Origin: Enterobacter phage CC31
Sequence record: NC_014662.1
DNA: 64,000 bases
Reading direction: 5' to 3' (one strand)
Of the stretch, positions 5,302 to 62,597 are shown piece after piece. Every line of letters starts with the position of its first letter. Positions within the stretch are counted from its first letter, which is position 1. Under the pieces are notes generated by a model, which did no database searches, had not been told where the DNA came from, and saw only the letters and a list, made by a program, of their open reading frames with translations. Made by a program: the position numbers and the translations under genes.

Positions 5302-6837
5302 TTATACTTTACCTTGCAGAACGTTAGTGAACTGCGAACCACGCCAGAAGTAACCTTGGTCATTCGGATGGACGTTATCATTTGAGGTGTACAGATTTGC
5401 GTTCTCTGCAGTAACCCAACCTTTAACATCTACGAACTCTAAGTTCAACTCAGTAGTAAGTTCAATCAGTGCATCACGAACTGCCGCGATTTGGTCAGTC
5501 ATTCCAAGAGGAGTTGCCGGTCCAAACACGATAATTTTAGCTGCAGGTTGATATTGCTTAATCAGAGCAATTGACTCTCTGAAGTTAGTTTTAAGCAAAT
5601 CAATTCTACCAGCCGGAGCATCGTTATAGCCTAAAGCTAAAGTGATGATATCCGGAGTGAAACTCAGAGTTGCAAGCTTAGCCGTGATACGAGCTTGAGG
5701 CTGAGTTGAGCTTGTTGAAGTCCAACCAGAACCACCGATGCCATCAGCTAATCCGACTAAACCAAGCTTATCACAATAGAAACGGAAATCGTTGAACGAT
5801 GCTTGAGTTGCCATTGTACCGAAGGTGTAAGAGTCACCAAGCTGCCAAATCATCTTAGCTGGACGAGTAATTGCAGTGATAGTTTTTCCAGTGTCTACAT
5901 AAATTCCGCCAAAGGCAGTATTCACGCCAACAAGAGAATATTCACGCATTTGCTCAACACCGTTCCAATCTATGCTATAGATGTAAACTGCACCAGACGA
6001 ATCAGTAGTGACTGAAGTTGCAGAAATACGTTGTCCATCTACATAAAGGTCATACTTGGAGTTATTCCCGGCGAGTTTGAAATCAATTTTGCTTGAATCA
6101 GTTTTGAAATTAACTCGACATTGAGTTCCGTTGCCAGTACCATTTCCTCTGAAACCAGAAACAGCGTCCTTGATGTCAGAACCCCAATAAGTGATTTTAG
6201 CATCAGTACGAGCAATTGTTACGCCAGCATAAATTGTTGAAGCTACACCAGCGTTGGTCGTTACAGTGAATTTAGCGCCTGTACCAGTACCACCTGTTGC
6301 TGAAATTTCACCAGTAGGAGCAGTTGCATATACACCAGGTTTACGAACTTGAGTAGTCGTAATTTCGCCATTACTACCAACAGCCGTTACACGGATTTGT
6401 CCATTAACATCACCAGTGGCTCCAGGAATATCCAAAATATCACCGAATGTATATCCAGTGCCACCTGAAACTAAAGTAGCATTTCCAGAAATACCTACGC
6501 CCTTAATAAGCTTTTGCGTTGGTGGATTTGACATTACTGCAACTGGTTGAAGCATTGGCCCTAATGGTGGTTGAGGGTCTGGACCATCTACTGTATATTC
6601 GCTTAAAGTATATTGATATCCATTTCTAGACTCAATGAAATTAACTTCACCGTAGTCTACATAAGCTTGTTTGAGAGTATCAATTTGAAGTGCATATTGA
6701 GGGTCAGCGTATTCACGCCAGTCTTTACCTTCTTCCTTGGCTTTAATAAGGATGTTGTGAATCCACCAAGGAAGGTAAAGGAAGCTTGTGTTACGCCACG
6801 GAATAGGATGTACCGTGGTCCAAATATCTGTAGCCAT
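5302..6837 (-). CDS. SGNH/GDSL-family hydrolase (esterase) with Gly/Thr-rich beta-type N-terminal domain
   Basis: 511 aa; C-terminal GDSYTFG (catalytic Ser block), LALGYNDA, DNVHPNDQGY (Asp-x-x-His block); N-terminal half rich in G/T/S repeats; strong AAGGAGA RBS before ATG at 6837. Confidence 0.7.
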   Translation of the reverse strand: MATDIWTTVHPIPWRNTSFLYLPWWIHNILIKAKEEGKDWREYADPQYALQIDTLKQAYVDYGEVNFIESRNGYQYTLSEYTVDGPDPQPPLGPMLQPVAVMSNPPTQKLIKGVGISGNATLVSGGTGYTFGDILDIPGATGDVNGQIRVTAVGSNGEITTTQVRKPGVYATAPTGEISATGGTGTGAKFTVTTNAGVASTIYAGVTIARTDAKITYWGSDIKDAVSGFRGNGTGNGTQCRVNFKTDSSKIDFKLAGNNSKYDLYVDGQRISATSVTTDSSGAVYIYSIDWNGVEQMREYSLVGVNTAFGGIYVDTGKTITAITRPAKMIWQLGDSYTFGTMATQASFNDFRFYCDKLGLVGLADGIGGSGWTSTSSTQPQARITAKLATLSFTPDIITLALGYNDAPAGRIDLLKTNFRESIALIKQYQPAAKIIVFGPATPLGMTDQIAAVRDALIELTTELNLEFVDVKGWVTAENANLYTSNDNVHPNDQGYFWRGSQFTNVLQGKV

Positions 6838-12681: not shown

Positions 12682-13290
12682 CTAGTTACTCGGAACTTCG
12701 TTCCGATTGGCAATCATCCATTCTTGTTCATCCTGGACCATGTTGATTTTATTTTTACGGTCAATTTTTGCTAAAGGGTCGTAAGGTGCTGCGCTGAACT
12801 CACAATTTGGAGCTGCGGCTAAAATCTTTAGCATATCTTCCTGGTAGTTATAAGCTATTGTAGGGTTAGACCAGCGAATGATGGTCTTGGTCCCATAGCA
12901 TCCAAAGCTAGCAAAACTTCTTGCTGTGTTAAAGTCGGTTGAAAAGCTTACAACTCTTTCAGATGTAAAAACCTCTCCAACTTCGACGTTTTGAAGAACA
13001 TTGAGCATTCGTCTGTTGACTCCACGATAAAGCATTTCAGGAGTAACGGTTGTCATACGACGGCGGATAACTTTATCCAACCCACGATTAACCCAGTCTT
13101 CCACTTTATCGTTCAAACACTTCCATAAAACTGCTTGTTCTTCATCAGTGAACATCGAGTTAACTTCAGACTCGAGCATTTTACGCTCGACTTCCTCTGA
13201 GCCTTCCCAATACTCATAGATTCCACCAGAAGGAACTGGTATTGATGGTGTGATTTCTACTTCAATGACAGGACTTTGATAGAATGCCAT
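12682..13290 (-). CDS. modA: ModA/ModB-like ADP-ribosyltransferase
   Basis: 202 aa from ATG 13288-13290 (GGAGG RBS); R-S-E ART signature: LYRGV (Arg), SFSTD (STS), DEQEW (Q/E-x-E); size matches T4 ModA. Confidence 0.7.
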   Translation of the reverse strand: MAFYQSPVIEVEITPSIPVPSGGIYEYWEGSEEVERKMLESEVNSMFTDEEQAVLWKCLNDKVEDWVNRGLDKVIRRRMTTVTPEMLYRGVNRRMLNVLQNVEVGEVFTSERVVSFSTDFNTARSFASFGCYGTKTIIRWSNPTIAYNYQEDMLKILAAAPNCEFSAAPYDPLAKIDRKNKINMVQDEQEWMIANRNEVPSN

Positions 13291-13318
13291 GATAACCTCC
13301 GTTTGTTTTACGGAAGCT

Positions 13319-13348
13319 ATCATAACACAGAAGAGAAGGGATGTAAAC
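13319..13348 (-). promoter_or_regulatory. T4-type early promoter
   Basis: minus GTTTAC (plus 13343-13348) and TATGAT (plus 13319-13324), about 18-nt spacer, upstream of modA start. Confidence 0.45.
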
Positions 13349-13350
13349 GG

Positions 13351-13560
13351 TTATTTTGCCCAGGGAGTCCAAGGCGGAGGGTCTGCCCACAATGAGGACA
13401 GTTCTTCACATAGAGCTTTTGTGCAATCTACCCCATGCTTTTTGAAGATTAGTTCTAACTCAGTAGCGATACTCTGGTCCACCTTCGGACCAGATTTCAT
13501 ATCAACTTCGACATATCCTTCAGGAATGTCTTCTTCAAACATATCGAAAATGTTACTCAA
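13351..13560 (-). CDS. hypothetical protein
   Basis: 69-aa acidic ORF. Confidence 0.45.
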   Translation of the reverse strand: MSNIFDMFEEDIPEGYVEVDMKSGPKVDQSIATELELIFKKHGVDCTKALCEELSSLWADPPPWTPWAK

Positions 13561-14069
13561 CGCGGAAGTGCCTCCGTTTTAGGAACACCCAATAGATGCC
13601 AAATACCTTTACGAAAAAGAATCATATCAAACTGGTCTGTGATTAACCAATTATTCACATGAGTAATTCCGTATCCATCAGTGTGCATCATATTCGGAAT
13701 TTTCACAGTATCGATACTTTTATCACCGAATTTAGGTTCTGGAATAATGTCAATCAGATTAGTTTGTGGAATTTTCCAGCCACCAATTAAGAAACTGTCT
13801 TGAGTATCAAATGGAGAGTTTTTGGTTTTAACATAAGTGTTGTATTCTTTGATGATAACGTCAACACCTTCAGGCCAACCATTTTTCAATTCACTTGGGT
13901 CAACATTGTCACGATAGCTAGTTCCATATTCTAAAAATGGATTATAGCAGATAGCTACCATGATTTCCCTTTTATGAAGAGGATGTCTTTTGTCAGTGAA
14001 CGATGGAAAATCTCGAGAAACAAATTCCAGACCGAATGTAGTAATTTTGTATTGTTTTTCGTCAGTCAC
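13557..14069 (-). CDS. hypothetical protein
   Basis: start placed at GTG 14067-14069 with GGAGG 8 nt upstream, 2 nt after upstream stop; track ORF uses a TTG further upstream without RBS. Confidence 0.5.
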   Translation of the reverse strand: MTDEKQYKITTFGLEFVSRDFPSFTDKRHPLHKREIMVAICYNPFLEYGTSYRDNVDPSELKNGWPEGVDVIIKEYNTYVKTKNSPFDTQDSFLIGGWKIPQTNLIDIIPEPKFGDKSIDTVKIPNMMHTDGYGITHVNNWLITDQFDMILFRKGIWHLLGVPKTEALPR

Positions 14070-14454
14070 AGGTGAAGCCTCCGCCAGTGTCACAGGATGT
14101 ATTTGAGGGACTGTCAATATAAGACGTTGTATGTATCATTGGACTATCATAAGAAGATACTCTGGATGAACTAGAGTGATTCTGGTGATTAACCGGAGTA
14201 TGAGTTACGCGTCCAGTATAAGTCTGTCCATTTCGTTGGACTTTCTCTTTCTTCACTATCACTTCTTCCATCATACCATCGCCCATGTAAATCCATTCAC
14301 GGTGTTCATTAGCGCCTTCTTCATAAGCTACGGCCATATCGTTGGCTCCGTACATATGCTCTTTAATGCTTTCATCAAGTCGGGTTTCTTCAGCTTTGAT
14401 TTGAGCATCTGGCCGAGGATTACCGAATAACCCTCTGACAAAATTCATAACCAT
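14062..14454 (-). CDS. hypothetical protein (Ser-rich C-terminus)
   Basis: start at ATG 14452-14454 overlapping upstream stop (TGATG). Confidence 0.5.
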   Translation of the reverse strand: MVMNFVRGLFGNPRPDAQIKAEETRLDESIKEHMYGANDMAVAYEEGANEHREWIYMGDGMMEEVIVKKEKVQRNGQTYTGRVTHTPVNHQNHSSSSRVSSYDSPMIHTTSYIDSPSNTSCDTGGGFTCD

Positions 14455-57951: not shown

Positions 57952-58007
57952 ATCTACCTCTTGAGTTAAAGTACCTCAATGGTAGTAAAATCCTGCTTTA
58001 AAATATT

Positions 58008-58118
58008 TCATGGTGATACCTTTCCTTCAATTAAAATCTTTAAGAACCCAAGCAAAGCAGCTATAACAAATCCTGCTGTTGGAAAAGCGAATAACCAAAA
58101 TAATACATCAATAGTCAT
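58008..58118 (-). CDS. small membrane peptide (36 aa)
   Basis: hand translation MTIDVLFWLFAFPTAGFVIAALLGFLKILIEGKVSP; ATGA-coupled. Confidence 0.3.
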   Translation of the reverse strand: MTIDVLFWLFAFPTAGFVIAALLGFLKILIEGKVSP

Positions 58119-58246
58119 CCTAATGTTACCTTACATTTGCATTTTGGACATTCAACTTCTTTTACACGAAGACGCTTTGTCTTCGTACGAGTAGCGGTAT
58201 CATGGTCGTAAACATGAAGACAACGATAGCAAATGACTAATTTCAT
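58115..58246 (-). CDS. small zinc-ribbon protein (43 aa)
   Basis: hand translation MKLVICYRCLHVYDHD...VECPKCKCKVTLG (CxxC...CxxC); ATGA-coupled on both sides. Confidence 0.35.
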   Translation of the reverse strand: MKLVICYRCLHVYDHDTATRTKTKRLRVKEVECPKCKCKVTLG

Positions 58247-58407
58247 CGGTCGATAACCTCGAAGATTTCATCTATGATTTCATCACCTTGACGAGCACGA
58301 ATTAACTCTTCAAATGTAACGGGCTTTTCAGACCAGCCAAGAACAACAGTGTTGCGTTGTAGCATATCACGAAGTTCTTCTAAAGCTTCTTGTTTAGTTG
58401 AAATCAT
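58243..58407 (-). CDS. small hypothetical protein (54 aa)
   Basis: hand translation MISTKQEALEELRDMLQ...; ATG overlaps stop of 58404..58616 (ATGA); AAGAAGG RBS. Confidence 0.35.
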   Translation of the reverse strand: MISTKQEALEELRDMLQRNTVVLGWSEKPVTFEELIRARQGDEIIDEIFEVIDR

Positions 58408-58616
58408 AGAACCTTCTTATAACATTCGAAATTACCTGAATAATATGCTTCAGAAACGTAATCACCTTCAACAACTAGTTGGCAAACTTTATCTGCGAGC
58501 AATTTATTAGCTTCAATTTGTTTACTAATTGCATGACCTTTTATACCTAAGAAAACGAATGCAACCAAAGTGATAGCAAGAAGAACCGTGTTGAAGATTT
58601 TTACATTCTTATTCAT
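58404..58616 (-). CDS. small membrane protein
   Basis: 70 aa with one TM helix. Confidence 0.5.
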   Translation of the reverse strand: MNKNVKIFNTVLLAITLVAFVFLGIKGHAISKQIEANKLLADKVCQLVVEGDYVSEAYYSGNFECYKKVL

Positions 58617-59193
58617 AAATACCAGTCATTTCACACCAATGTTTTCGACAGAGTGAGACGTATTTGTCTTCACCACCTAATTCAATAGTATCACCTTCTA
58701 CAATAGCATTTCCTTCTTGGTCAACACGAGCAACCATAGTTGCTTTACGACCGCAATGACAAACACCCTTCAGTTCACAGAGTTTATCTGCCGTAGCCAG
58801 AAGAGCAGCTGAACCCTTAAATAGGTTACCACGGAAATCTGTGCGAAGTCCATAGGCCATCACTGGAGTATTATAGAGGTCAACAATTTGACATAACTGA
58901 AGAACATGAGATTGAGTCAAGAACTGTGCTTCATCAACAAATACACAGTGAATGTCTTTTTGAGTCTGTGCCCATTTGAAGAACTCAAGAATGTCCATGT
59001 CTTCAGTAATAGTATTTGCTTCAGCATGTAGACCAACACGAGATACAACTTCATTTGCTGAATCTCGAGTATCAATAGCCGGCTTAAGAATGAGTGTTCC
59101 CATTCCACGCTCTTTATAGTTATGAGCTGCTGTAAGTAGAGATGCTGATTTACCAGCGTTCATTGAAGCATAGTTAAAATAAAGTTGTGCCAT
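58609..59193 (-). CDS. tk: thymidine kinase
   Basis: 194 aa from ATG 59191-59193; SMNAGKSASLL Walker A, VFVDEAQF, YGLRTDF, CHCGxKA zinc site match recalled T4 Tk. Confidence 0.9.
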   Translation of the reverse strand: MAQLYFNYASMNAGKSASLLTAAHNYKERGMGTLILKPAIDTRDSANEVVSRVGLHAEANTITEDMDILEFFKWAQTQKDIHCVFVDEAQFLTQSHVLQLCQIVDLYNTPVMAYGLRTDFRGNLFKGSAALLATADKLCELKGVCHCGRKATMVARVDQEGNAIVEGDTIELGGEDKYVSLCRKHWCEMTGIYE

Positions 59194-59648
59194 TATTCGC
59201 CGTCCCAATCAACAACTACAATATCAACATTCGGTGTAAACATATTAATTAGTGCTTCAATTTTTTCCCAATCGCCGCCAGCAATACCTGCTCCAATACG
59301 AGGAATATGAACTTCCATTTTAAACAGAGAACCAGATAAAAATTTATCCATTTTCTGGAAAGCATTAACTAATGCGCCGTAATCAAGATTAGGACCTGGC
59401 TCATATTGAGTATAAAGATTAAAGCAAGCTCCACCTTTTGCTGCTAATGCTAAACTAAATGTTCCAAGCTTTTCGCGGGCGGCATAATCCGTAGCTGCTT
59501 TATCTGTTGATAAAATAACTGGAAATTTTGATGCAAGCTGTCCTGCTACACCCGCACCCATTGTATGAAAACAATTACATCCGTGAGCAATTACTTTTCC
59601 TTCAGAATACAGCTTAACAATATCGCCTTTAATGTATTTTACAATCAT
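59193..59648 (-). CDS. macro-domain (ADP-ribose-binding/processing) protein
   Basis: 151 aa; KGDIVK...VIAHGCNC...MGAGVAGQL parallels macro-domain GDIT...AIVNAAN...GGGVDGAI block. Confidence 0.6.
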   Translation of the reverse strand: MIVKYIKGDIVKLYSEGKVIAHGCNCFHTMGAGVAGQLASKFPVILSTDKAATDYAAREKLGTFSLALAAKGGACFNLYTQYEPGPNLDYGALVNAFQKMDKFLSGSLFKMEVHIPRIGAGIAGGDWEKIEALINMFTPNVDIVVVDWDGE

Positions 59649-60064
59649 CTTTTCCTCAACTCGGGTATGCTTTTAAATTGGTAAGTAGCGTAGTTTTCGA
59701 ATTCATCGTAAACTCGCACATAAATTTCTTCGCCACATGTTAAATTCTTAAAAGACTTCAAATCTCTTTCAGAAAAATCTATCGATACTCCATCAATAGT
59801 TCCGGAGGATTTGGCTCCGCAACCTCGAAAATGAATTGAACCACCCGGAATAATAGCTTGGTCTTCTTTGTTGGAGTAATTGTAAAATGATACACCAAAA
59901 GCTTTCTTTTTCGGATAGTAAGAAACTTCAATATTCTTTTTAAACGAACCAGTTGTTTCAACTAGCCTACCATTAATAGCATAGATGTTATCAGGATAGC
60001 CTGGGAGTTTTTCCCAGGCATTTACTGATAATGGTAGAGCTAGCAGAAATGCTGCTATTTTCAC
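59645..60064 (-). CDS. secreted hypothetical protein
   Basis: 139 aa; signal peptide MKIAAFLLALPLSVNA. Confidence 0.55.
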   Translation of the reverse strand: MKIAAFLLALPLSVNAWEKLPGYPDNIYAINGRLVETTGSFKKNIEVSYYPKKKAFGVSFYNYSNKEDQAIIPGGSIHFRGCGAKSSGTIDGVSIDFSERDLKSFKNLTCGEEIYVRVYDEFENYATYQFKSIPELRKR

Positions 60065-60387
60065 TTAGATAATCCCGCTATATACACCCTCAATAATGTG
60101 TCACGATATTCTTCGCATACATTCATATCAGGCGCATTATCACATAACGACTCAAGGTCTTTAGCCTTACGAGCCACCAAGGTAGACCATTTAAAGCGGC
60201 TACCAGAATCAGTTTGTCCTTCAGCGTAAGTTTTGTCAAAGTCAAATGACAAAATGTTCAAACACTCCGTATTAGTCTTTGTGCAGAATTGCTTTGCTAA
60301 TGTCAAAGAATCATCTTGTTCAGTAGAAAAATCAACTTTACACCCAGATAGAGCAAAAACTACTAGAAGTACAAACAACTTTTTCAT
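60061..60387 (-). CDS. putative lipoprotein
   Basis: 108 aa; MKKLFVLLVVFALSGC lipobox. Confidence 0.55.
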   Translation of the reverse strand: MKKLFVLLVVFALSGCKVDFSTEQDDSLTLAKQFCTKTNTECLNILSFDFDKTYAEGQTDSGSRFKWSTLVARKAKDLESLCDNAPDMNVCEEYRDTLLRVYIAGLSK

Positions 60388-60935
60388 TATTCCACCGTAT
60401 AATGAAGCATTTTACGAGATTTCAAGTAATTCGCCTTTGCTAATACTTCAGAGGCGTACTTGTTACCGGCTTTCCACTTGTTTCCTGCGTTGTATGACGC
60501 TATGGCTTTTCTCATATCACCGTTATGACGGTCCAGCCAATAACTTAACTCAATATACGCCCAAGCGGCGGAGTGCTTCCGGTTCTTTGCCATGCGGATG
60601 ATTTCTGCGTCTGTCATTGACCATCCGGCTTGTTTAACTCTTTCCCTGAGTGTAGGAAGATAATTTTGAAATATCCCGTAAGCGTGATGCCCGTGTTTAC
60701 CAGTTGTACGTAAGCCTGCAGAACTTTCCTGCCAGACTAGTGCAGCCATAATGTAACCAAGTCCATTGTTGTCATACCGCTTACTATGGTCTTTATACTT
60801 CCCATTCTTCTGAAATTGTTCACCAAACGAATATGCATATTGCAAATTGTCGAGTTGGACATTACTGAAGGTGTGTTCGGACGCAAATCCTAAAGACGAA
60901 ACTAGGAGTAACGCCGCGCATAGAGCTTTTTTCAT
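60387..60935 (-). CDS. secreted lytic-transglycosylase-like (SLT/lysozyme-like) protein
   Basis: 182 aa; signal peptide; WQESSAG...HAYGIFQ resembles SLT catalytic Glu-Ser and downstream Gly-h-h-Gln block. Confidence 0.55.
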   Translation of the reverse strand: MKKALCAALLLVSSLGFASEHTFSNVQLDNLQYAYSFGEQFQKNGKYKDHSKRYDNNGLGYIMAALVWQESSAGLRTTGKHGHHAYGIFQNYLPTLRERVKQAGWSMTDAEIIRMAKNRKHSAAWAYIELSYWLDRHNGDMRKAIASYNAGNKWKAGNKYASEVLAKANYLKSRKMLHYTVE

Positions 60936-60957
60936 GCTTGCCTCAATTGAAACTAAA

Positions 60958-61428
60958 TTATAACTTGATAATCTTTGTGCTGATTTTACCTTTCAAGCGT
61001 TTATCATTTACGAATGCCATGCGACATTGCATGGAGTGACCGCGGAACGGGTGTTCTGGGTTTGGTAGAGAGACAGTCATTCCAAGCCATAGAGTACCAT
61101 CAGTGATTTCCAAACGCTGAGGCCTGTATTCTACTTCTGGGTCAATTTCCGATGGGTCAATAGGAAGCATCGGCATTTCTAAGAACTCGTGAATTTCTGT
61201 TACGTGATTGTGTACTTTGTGGAACAGAGCGAACACATACTCTTCATCAATCTCCCGTTGGATAGCACGGTCCAAGAGATGATTAGAATATTTAATAAAG
61301 AAAGCTGGGATACCAGCAGATGCGCAAGCACTACGTATAGAATCGTTTACACTCTTGAACTCAGTCTCAAAGCGACGACGTAGCTTGTTTCGGCGGATGA
61401 ATACTTCTGGATTAGTTGTCATTTTCAA
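60958..61428 (-). CDS. regB: RegB site-specific endoribonuclease
   Basis: 156 aa; EVFIRRNKLRR, KYSxHLLDRAIQREIDE, EYRPxRLEITDG-LWLG, LQCRMA match recalled T4 RegB. Confidence 0.88.
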   Translation of the reverse strand: MKMTTNPEVFIRRNKLRRRFETEFKSVNDSIRSACASAGIPAFFIKYSNHLLDRAIQREIDEEYVFALFHKVHNHVTEIHEFLEMPMLPIDPSEIDPEVEYRPQRLEITDGTLWLGMTVSLPNPEHPFRGHSMQCRMAFVNDKRLKGKISTKIIKL

Positions 61429-61448
61429 TCTCCTTTGTTGATAGGGCT

Positions 61449-61478
61449 ATAGTATCATAGCCCTTGGAGAAAGTAAAC
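61449..61478 (-). promoter_or_regulatory. T4-type early promoter with embedded 8-bp inverted repeat
   Basis: minus GTTTAC (plus 61473-61478), TACTAT (plus 61449-61454); palindrome at 61443..61464 identical to the 8651..8672 copy. Confidence 0.5.
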
Positions 61479-61708
61479 TAGTAGTTTTGGTCGTCATAGA
61501 ACACTTGAAGCAGAACGTTGTTACGTAACCGCTTTGTGTCAGCTAAACGTTGTCTAAGCTTGGAGATTTTGTCCTGTACCCGGTTAAACTCTTCTGAGGT
61601 TGACGGGTCATGAATCTTCATAGCCTCATCCACAAGCTGCTCCATCTTTTCTTCCATAGCATTAATAGCTTCAGAGAAAGATTCGGAGACTTTGTTGCGG
61701 ATAGACAT
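61478..61708 (-). CDS. hypothetical protein (vs.3 position)
   Basis: 76 aa from ATG 61706-61708 overlapping upstream stop (TAATG). Confidence 0.5.
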   Translation of the reverse strand: MSIRNKVSESFSEAINAMEEKMEQLVDEAMKIHDPSTSEEFNRVQDKISKLRQRLADTKRLRNNVLLQVFYDDQNY

Positions 61709-61989
61709 TAGTACTTTTCTTCTGGTTGAAACACTGAACGGCATGCCCACATAGATGCTTCTTTAAGGTGCTGAATAGCATTACGAATTTGAGTGATACG
61801 CTCATGAGCCAAATCAAACTCTTCGTCACTAATTTTATCAACATCTAAATCCATGTATACTTTTACATGTTCTTCTTCAAGAGCTTTAAAAATCAGGCCA
61901 AGACGAAGTTCAGCATCTTTAATAGCATTCACTTTACCGATTTTATCTTCAGTATGTGGTTTATAGCCTTTGATATCTTCAATTGACAT
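61708..61989 (-). CDS. hypothetical protein at vs.4 position (possible Acb2-like cyclic-oligonucleotide sponge)
   Basis: 93 aa, second gene after regB as T4 vs.4; size matches; sequence-level homology not verifiable here. Confidence 0.5.
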   Translation of the reverse strand: MSIEDIKGYKPHTEDKIGKVNAIKDAELRLGLIFKALEEEHVKVYMDLDVDKISDEEFDLAHERITQIRNAIQHLKEASMWACRSVFQPEEKY

Positions 61990-62351
61990 TACATTTCCTT
62001 GGTGAAAGTACGTGCAATAACGTCACGCTGCTGTTCTGACGTCAGAGAATTAAATCGGACAGCATAACCAGAAACACGAATAGTCAGCTGAGGATATTTT
62101 TCTGGATGTTGAACTGCATCTTCTAAAGTTTCTTTAGTCAGAACATTCACGTTCAGATGTTGGCCACCTTCAACTTTAACTACAGGTTGACTTTCAATTC
62201 CAACTTCTCGAGATTCAAGTCCAAAGAAAGTTTCTACATCAACAATAGAATCTTCTGCCAAAGTTTTAGATACAATCACACGGGCTTTATCACCATCTTC
62301 AAGATAAATTGTGCCTTTATGAGTGCCATTCAAAATTTGATATGCGTTCAT
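61989..62351 (-). CDS. grcA: autonomous glycyl radical cofactor (GrcA/YfiD-like)
   Basis: 120 aa; C-terminal [58 protein letters not shown] almost identical to recalled E. coli GrcA, includes RVSGY glycyl radical motif. Confidence 0.85.
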
Positions 62352-62360
62352 AGTAGTTCC

Positions 62361-62597
62361 TTATGGGTATTGAATTTCTTCGTCAGTCTCTTTATCATAC
62401 TCACGAATTTTGATTGGTTCATTAATTCCGTAACCACTTATAAGAAGTCCAGTTTTAGCATCTTCCCACTGTTTAGTTTCTTCATTCCACACACCATTAG
62501 CGTGTGCTTCCATTAAATCTTGTTCGCCTTGGTTTGAAAACCAGTCGCAGAAAGATTTAACCAAGTGGTCGGGGACGTCGATAATAATTTGCGCCAT
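62361..62597 (-). CDS. hypothetical protein
   Basis: 78-aa ORF. Confidence 0.45.
   Translation of the reverse strand: MAQIIIDVPDHLVKSFCDWFSNQGEQDLMEAHANGVWNEETKQWEDAKTGLLISGYGINEPIKIREYDKETDEEIQYP

Follow-up and report, generated by a model that had tools for sequence, protein, structure and literature searches.

A stand-alone macrodomain of Enterobacter phage CC31 orthologous to T4 Tk.4, and its possible role in countering DarTG2

The genes at the locus

We describe a gene for a small macrodomain protein of Enterobacter phage CC31, located in a stretch of 64,000 nucleotides (sequence record NC_014662.1) that will be called the window. The gene is the ortholog of T4 tk.4, also named adfM, and its product carries glutamine at the position where the related enzymes DarG and TARG1 have their catalytic lysine. 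The open reading frame (ORF) occupies positions 59193..59648 on the minus strand, starts with ATG and encodes 151 amino acids; an earlier note, made from the letters of the window alone, had placed it at exactly these positions. Inspection of the sequence reveals a Shine-Dalgarno motif GAGG, 5 nucleotides 5' of the ATG (59654..59657, minus strand, ...TTGAGGAAAAGATG).

All neighbours considered here lie on the same strand. Directly downstream is tk, the gene for thymidine kinase (58609..59193; Pfam TK, E 1.5e-54), whose start at MAQLYF is the one annotated in Enterobacter phage EnA02 (585 nucleotides). The two genes meet in the sequence TAATG (59191..59195), where the TAA stop of the macrodomain gene overlaps the ATG of tk, so that the placement immediately upstream of thymidine kinase in the earlier note was right. 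On the other side, the stop codon of a 139-codon ORF of unknown function (59645..60064; phrog_4957, E 1.1e-52) overlaps the macrodomain start in the sequence ATGA (59645..59648), as is evident from the ORF coordinates and the letters themselves. This overlap suggests translational coupling of the two genes. The N-terminus of the 139-residue product resembles a Sec signal (MKIAAFLLALPLSVNA followed by WE). Further upstream are the orthologs of vs (60061..60387; phrog_1256, E 1.5e-31; 32% identity to T4 Vs) and vs.1 (60387..60935; Pfam SLT, 8.7e-6; phrog_600, 4.6e-63), and a regB-type endoribonuclease gene (60958..61428; phrog_1323, E 6.6e-72). These three serve as synteny anchors.

A scan of positions 58000..62500 for promoter and terminator consensus sequences found none above the shuffled background; there were 10 promoter-like sites where 12.9 were expected. 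Since stop and start codons overlap, co-transcription with the flanking genes is suggested, and the macrodomain gene is best read as one cistron of a tightly packed minus-strand cluster. In T4 the cluster running from regB through vs to tk belongs to an early-gene region.

A macrodomain of the ALC1-like class

The earlier note had taken the product for a macrodomain protein on the strength of three motifs, GDI, AHGCNC and MGAGVAGQL. All three are present, and the assignment is confirmed far beyond chance by several approaches that agree with one another. The protein matches phrog_335 with E 1.9e-64, and its sequence matches in the PDB are the macrodomains Poa1p, BT1257, SCO6735, DarG and TARG1. 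A family profile was made from 72 homologue sequences, whose alignment is the source of every residue called invariant below. It finds BT1257 (3.8e-18), TARG1 (5.8e-16), Poa1p (2.3e-14), SCO6735 (3.5e-14) and the DarG proteins of Mycobacterium tuberculosis (3.9e-11) and Thermus aquaticus (2.2e-9). The AlphaFold2 model has a mean predicted local distance difference test score (pLDDT) of 95.5 and a predicted template modelling score (pTM) of 0.90, and it displays the three-layer alpha/beta/alpha arrangement around a central mixed beta-sheet that is typical of macrodomains. A Foldseek comparison, which the earlier note had recommended, retrieves with this model the same set of macrodomains as the sequence search. 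The top match is TARG1 (OARD1; PDB 4J5R; E 4.3e-10, template modelling score 0.78-0.84).

One search fell short. As a single sequence the protein scores 20.0 bits against Pfam Macro (PF01661), E 6.8e-4, and misses the gathering score of 22. Because PF01661 is precomputed in many homologues that are 40-77% identical to the ORF, we regard this as a limit of sensitivity and not as evidence against membership. The glycine-rich loops M30-G31-A32-G33 and I118-G119-A120-G121 are present and align with the corresponding loops of TARG1, DarG and SCO6735; the conserved asparagine that follows beta-2 is N25, which is invariant. The DarG model of PADLOC also matches (E 1.7e-5), over positions 2-140 of its 329. 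The protein is a member of the class of ALC1-like macrodomains, which includes TARG1, DarG, SCO6735 and Poa1p, and it stands alone, with no further domain.

Orthology to T4 Tk.4 and spread of the family

According to the earlier note, T4 might have no macrodomain at this position. There is one: T4 Tk.4 (NP_049723) is 51% identical to the CC31 protein, with 71% positives, over residues 1-149 (E 5e-61), and its gene lies between vs and tk. RefSeq labels it 'phosphatase; Tk.4; contains A1pp phosphatase motif'. The two proteins are of similar length (151 residues here, 155 in T4), belong to the same PHROG, are encoded in the same early cluster between vs and tk, and have in common the N-terminal motif KGDIV...IAHGCNCFHTMG.GVAGQL as well as YTQ..PGPN. 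In T4 and in AR1 the gene order is regB, vs.1, vs, tk.4, tk.3, tk.2, tk.1, tk, whereas in CC31 it is regB, vs.1, vs, 139-residue ORF, macrodomain gene, tk. Two differences are apparent: the macrodomain gene abuts tk in CC31 because tk.1-tk.3 are absent, and the ORF for the putatively secreted 139-residue protein separates it from vs, a place where T4 has no gene. The host genus, Enterobacter, is also different. The CC31 gene is the syntenic ortholog, in a Karamvirus (Tevenvirinae), of T4 tk.4/adfM; that it encodes a macrodomain orthologous to Tk.4 is hardly open to doubt.

In the Karamvirus EnA02 the region is 99.2% identical, and the gene is labelled 'hypothetical protein'. The family is widespread: a tblastn search finds relatives in 2,825 phage records, among them T4-like, rV5-like, phi92-like and FelixO1-like phages and some phages of Pseudomonas, Vibrio and Acinetobacter, and BFVD returns many models titled 'tk.4' or 'Macro domain-containing protein'. 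According to one survey, Macro domains occur in 41% of myoviruses (PMC9503650).

Two further proteins with a related macrodomain have additional domains. A metagenomic protein of 247 residues, P0076, joins a Tk.4-like macrodomain (46% identity) to a NUDIX domain at the C-terminus (Pfam NUDIX, E 3.8e-13), a fusion which hints that release and degradation of ADP-ribose may be coupled in some relatives. The 'SNF2 subfamily protein' of a giant virus, Marseillevirus LCMAC103 (BFVD A0A481YV05) has a macrodomain 37% identical to the CC31 protein (Foldseek E 6.8e-15), and its combination of SNF2 and macro recalls the architecture of human ALC1/CHD1L.

An active site without the lysine of DarG and TARG1

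The residues that matter most for what follows are H22, N25, the loop M30-G31-A32-G33, Q81 and the loop P116-R-I-G-A-G-I-A-G-G-D-W127. Invariant in the family are H22, G23, N25, C26, M30, G33, A35, D49, G62, N77, Y79, T80, Q81, G85, P116, I118, G119, G121 and W127. In profile hidden Markov model (HMM) alignments the segment NLYTQ81 stands opposite YLITK84 of TARG1, FNFPTK of T. aquaticus DarG and INFPTK of M. tuberculosis DarG, and A123 stands opposite TARG1 D125. With Q81 and A123 at these positions, the Tk.4 family has neither the catalytic lysine found in DarG and TARG1 nor the TARG1 aspartate. An alignment of eight sequences by MAFFT placed Y82 opposite the lysine; we rejected this register, since three profile-HMM alignments and BLASTP all place Q81 there. 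Neither register, in any case, supplies a lysine.

The same glutamine is found in SCO6735 of Streptomyces coelicolor (PDB 5E3B) and in BT1257 (PDB 2FG1/2AFC). Q81 is aligned with Q85 of SCO6735 by profile HMM and by BLASTP (27% identity, E 1e-13), H22-G23 would correspond to its H24-V25, and its numbering was checked against V25, K34, K89 and G126 as they are named in PMC9411070. The counterpart of the loop PRIGAGIAGGDW is PRIGCGLAGGTW in SCO6735 and PRIGCGLAGGKW in BT1257; PRIGxGxAGGxW is common to all. These are cellular proteins, in contrast to the phage-encoded Tk.4 family, and they differ from it also just past the glutamine, where their alignment to the Tk.4 profile requires 5-6 inserted residues (QHGMKTGSKGAP compared with QYEPGPN).

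SCO6735 has been studied experimentally. It lacks the lysine and aspartate residues, yet removes ADP-ribose from thymidine in DNA (dT-ADPr) faster than DarG or TARG1, and it rescues E. coli from DarT; replacement of Gln85 by alanine or by glutamate (Q85A, Q85E) inactivates it (PMC9411070). The mechanism proposed for it involves an ordered water molecule and a substrate positioned by Gln85, and its substrates, like those of TARG1, include dT-ADPr DNA and proteins ADP-ribosylated on glutamate or aspartate (PMC9411070). Both enzymes also cleave RNA ADP-ribosylated on N3 of uracil (PMC13036486).

DarG (T. aquaticus 5M31/5M3E, M. tuberculosis 5M3I) has its catalytic lysine (K80 in the T. aquaticus protein, within PTKKHWR) where Gln81 is found here. 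The CC31 ORF, unlike DarG, has neither a C-terminal DarT-binding domain nor an adjacent darT; its neighbours are tk and the ORF with the secretion-type N-terminus. As the lysine, the DarT-interacting domain and the adjacent toxin gene are all absent, membership of the DarG family was rejected. TARG1, too, is a stand-alone macrodomain of about 150 residues and can remove dT-ADPr, but its catalytic dyad is replaced here (K84 by Q81, D125 by A123), and for want of the Lys84/Asp125 dyad membership of the TARG1 subgroup was likewise rejected. The similarity to yeast Poa1p (PDB 6LFQ), a phosphatase that acts on a small molecule, ADP-ribose-1''-phosphate, falls mainly within the first 44 residues. 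The Poa1p structures on deposit include mutants of H23, S30 and F152; in one alignment the first is kept as H22, the second conservatively replaced by T29 and the third lost at A123.

A second phage protein bears the name AdfM. This is gp104 of phage PhiKZ, a macrodomain that removes ADP-ribose placed by DarT2 from single-stranded DNA in vitro (PMC13309987). Unlike the CC31 protein, gp104 is of the DarG type, with lysine (PTKDNWR) where the CC31 protein has glutamine; by BLASTP the two are only marginally similar (E 0.006), and the family profile finds gp104 with E 1.8e-11. The name was given to it independently. Judged by their sequences, the two proteins called AdfM, T4 Tk.4 and PhiKZ gp104, belong to different, non-orthologous lineages of one macrodomain class. 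This non-orthology goes modestly beyond the literature we searched, and so does the glutamine that takes the place of the DarG/TARG1 lysine in the Tk.4 family.

A proposed role against DarTG2

DarTG2 is a bacterial defence system that ADP-ribosylates phage DNA. T4 that lacks adfA and adfN stays resistant to it (PMC11825919). Because the double loss leaves resistance, a further anti-DarTG2 factor was to be expected in T4. In a preprint of November 2025, a transposon library of T4 was passed on a host expressing DarTG2, and tk.4 was the single significant hit (10.1101/2025.11.20.689424). The earlier note had suggested growing a deletion mutant on a DarTG-carrying host. Others have now done this for T4: a clean knockout of tk.4 makes the phage sensitive to DarTG2, and the gene was renamed adfM, for anti-DarT factor Macrodomain (10.1101/2025.11.20.689424). 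As to the other T4 factors, tblastn finds no homologue of gp61.2/AdfA in the window at E < 1e-3; adfN (30.3), which was not searched for, is expected from its position in T4 to lie outside the window.

We also looked at T5 (NC_005859), a phage reported to be sensitive to DarTG2. A six-frame scan of its genome with the family profile found no Tk.4-family macrodomain (best E 0.26); the T4 control gave 1.5e-61, and the window itself 3.5e-66. Coming from a single phage, this is weakly consistent with a role in counter-defence. As for the availability of a target, which also agrees with such a role, homologues of DarT (DUF4433) occur on Escherichia, Citrobacter and Klebsiella plasmids. The T5 record has two annotated Sir2-like genes (T5.102 and T5.105).

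Removal of host ADP-ribosylation from phage DNA was among the options offered in the earlier note. It is the apparent role of the T4 ortholog, given the knockout; for the CC31 protein, hydrolysis, its substrate and the part played by Q81 are what we infer. The course of events might be as follows. The macrodomain would be made during infection as part of the regB-vs-tk cluster. Its ligand would be the ADP-ribose with which host DarT2 modifies thymidine at N3 wherever single-stranded phage DNA has a TNTC motif; N25 together with the two glycine-rich loops would keep the distal ribose and the diphosphate in place. The N-glycosidic bond between ribose and base would then be hydrolysed by a route that is independent of lysine and dependent on Gln81, whose part would be to place the substrate and an ordered water molecule. 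With ADP-ribose released, the phage DNA could be replicated again. The chemistry is probably not of the DarG/TARG1 type, since the catalytic lysine is absent; a glutamine-dependent mechanism like that of SCO6735 is more likely, by analogy with that enzyme. Altogether, we think that the protein probably serves to clear phage DNA of the ADP-ribose which DarT2 has placed there, by a glutamine-type mechanism, though we would not call this assured.

Several points weigh against this interpretation. The roles given to individual residues are read from sequence alignment only. The Tk.4 family does not have the extended mobile loop with Lys89, which exceeds that of DarG and TARG1 by about 5 residues and to which the authors of the SCO6735 study tied the high activity of the enzyme on DNA (PMC9411070). 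The SB loop is not constant: it reads GAGIAGGDW in CC31, as in the majority of the family, and GAGIGKGNW in T4. The DarTG2 phenotype comes from one preprint on T4 in E. coli, and the T4 protein is 51% identical to that of CC31; removal of ADP-ribose from DNA was proposed there by analogy with DarG, from similarity of fold only (10.1101/2025.11.20.689424). The proposed role also presupposes that the Enterobacter hosts of this phage carry DarTG2. Finally, the nearest solved enzyme in a single-sequence search is Poa1p, which makes a small-molecule substrate possible.

Alternative explanations

How, then, do other explanations compare? The missing lysine and aspartate invite the idea that DarT2 is neutralised without catalysis, by binding of the toxin ('interaction-inhibition') or by shielding of the ADP-ribosylated DNA. 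Inactive variants of known enzymes do behave in this way, for SCO6735 Q85A, DarG K80A and TARG1 K84A all inhibit DarT in vitro, SCO6735 the most (PMC9411070). The residues that serve hydrolysis in SCO6735 (the glutamine, the asparagine and the glycine loops) are, however, invariant in distant homologues, which suggests a conserved active site. In addition, the ORF has no counterpart of DarG's C-terminal DarT-binding domain, its match to the PADLOC model being confined to the part given above, and a stoichiometric binder would have to keep track of diverse DarT2 proteins in a family that spans many phage groups and hosts. We therefore consider purely non-catalytic protection improbable. We rate no higher the idea that the main substrates are small derivatives of ADP-ribose, such as ADP-ribose-1''-phosphate, O-acetyl-ADP-ribose, or immune signals or toxins derived from ADP-ribose; nothing indicated a role against the signals of Thoeris. 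The similarity to Poa1p, on which the historical database label 'phosphatase' is based, speaks for it, as do the macro-NUDIX fusion among the relatives and an argument made in PMC9503650. Yet the match to Poa1p lies largely near the N-terminus (residues 3-44), Poa1p F152 is replaced by Ala123, and the family profile ranks BT1257 and TARG1 above Poa1p, with SCO6735 about level with it; moreover, the one phenotype on record in the family is sensitivity to DarTG2.

The breadth of the proposed activity is a different matter. SCO6735 and TARG1 accept the three kinds of substrate listed above, and the SCO6735-type glutamine site is common to the Tk.4 family, so the CC31 protein could be a broad eraser of ADP-ribose from nucleic acids and proteins, acting on DarT2 adducts and also on uracil-ADPr RNA, Glu/Asp-ADPr proteins and other products of host ADP-ribosyltransferases. 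In T4 the positive result is for DarTG2 only, and we give a broad eraser a small chance; it would extend the removal of DarT2 adducts by hydrolysis and does not contradict it. The leading idea of the earlier note was another one, that the phage reverses or tunes its own ADP-ribosylation, that is, modification or RNAylation of host proteins by transferases of the Alt/ModA/ModB type. A ModA/ModB-like gene is indeed present in the window (12682..13323, minus strand, 213 amino acids; phrog_832 'RNA polymerase ADP-ribosylase', E 2.5e-38; no Pfam match), although it extends to 13323 and not, as had been stated, to 13290. Its distance from the macrodomain gene is about 46 kb, the two are not co-located, and the macrodomain family is also found in phages that are not T4-like (rV5-, phi92- and FelixO1-like). 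The linkage is a further difficulty. T4 Alt, ModA and ModB modify arginine, and ADP-ribose on arginine is normally removed by enzymes of the ARH/DraG type; we know of no cleavage of it by the TARG1/DarG/SCO6735 class, whose reported substrates are esters of glutamate and aspartate and the bases T or U. Reversal of ModA-type arginine ADP-ribosylation was rejected for this reason, and the idea as a whole, being unsupported, is very unlikely to be correct.

Other genes in the window

Some of the other genes deserve mention in their own right. At the N-terminus of the vs ortholog is a signal of the lipoprotein type (MKKLFVLLVVFALSGC), the protein weakly matches Cor superinfection-exclusion proteins (phrog_1119, E 1.3e-3), and the N-terminus of T4 Vs (5390..5734 of the T4 segment compared) is likewise hydrophobic and signal-like. 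Such an N-terminus is unexpected for vs, the 'valyl-tRNA synthetase modifier', which is said to act on a cytoplasmic synthetase. The product of the vs.1 ortholog combines an SLT lytic-transglycosylase domain with a signal peptide, and phrog_600 carries the label 'unknown function'. Adjoining the ModA/ModB-like gene is an ORF of 186 codons (13557..14117, minus strand) with a weak, sub-threshold match to the T4 MRH-like family (PF24070, E 2.3e-4; 21.5 bits against 24.4).

What the finding may mean

Neither the domain nor its place in T4-like genomes is new, and a probable role has been described as well: the T4 annotation has included the domain for years, and its likely role was published in 2025. 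The glutamine site and the non-orthology with PhiKZ AdfM are modest additions and do not amount to a new kind of system. Even so, the analysis may be of use. Many matching phage records list the gene as 'hypothetical protein' or 'phosphatase', and it could be relabelled as a Tk.4/AdfM-type macrodomain, a candidate anti-DarTG2 factor. This bears on forecasts of which strains carrying DarTG2 a therapeutic phage could infect, be it a Karamvirus, a Tequatrovirus or a related phage. The glutamine at the position of the DarG/TARG1 lysine also lets SCO6735-type chemistry in phage counter-defence be probed directly.

A more speculative suggestion can be added, which we put forward tentatively and would not be surprised to see fail. 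The Tk.4-type AdfM may represent a third subtype of thymidine ADP-ribosylglycohydrolase, lysine-less like SCO6735, dependent on Gln81 and mediated by water, with the short-loop architecture seen in DarG and TARG1. It would have no orthology with the AdfM of PhiKZ-like phages, which is of the DarG type. If this is true, phages would have recruited macrodomains that counter DarT2 at least twice, and those of the Tk.4 type may be erasers of wide scope, active also on uracil-ADPr RNA or Glu/Asp-ADPr proteins.

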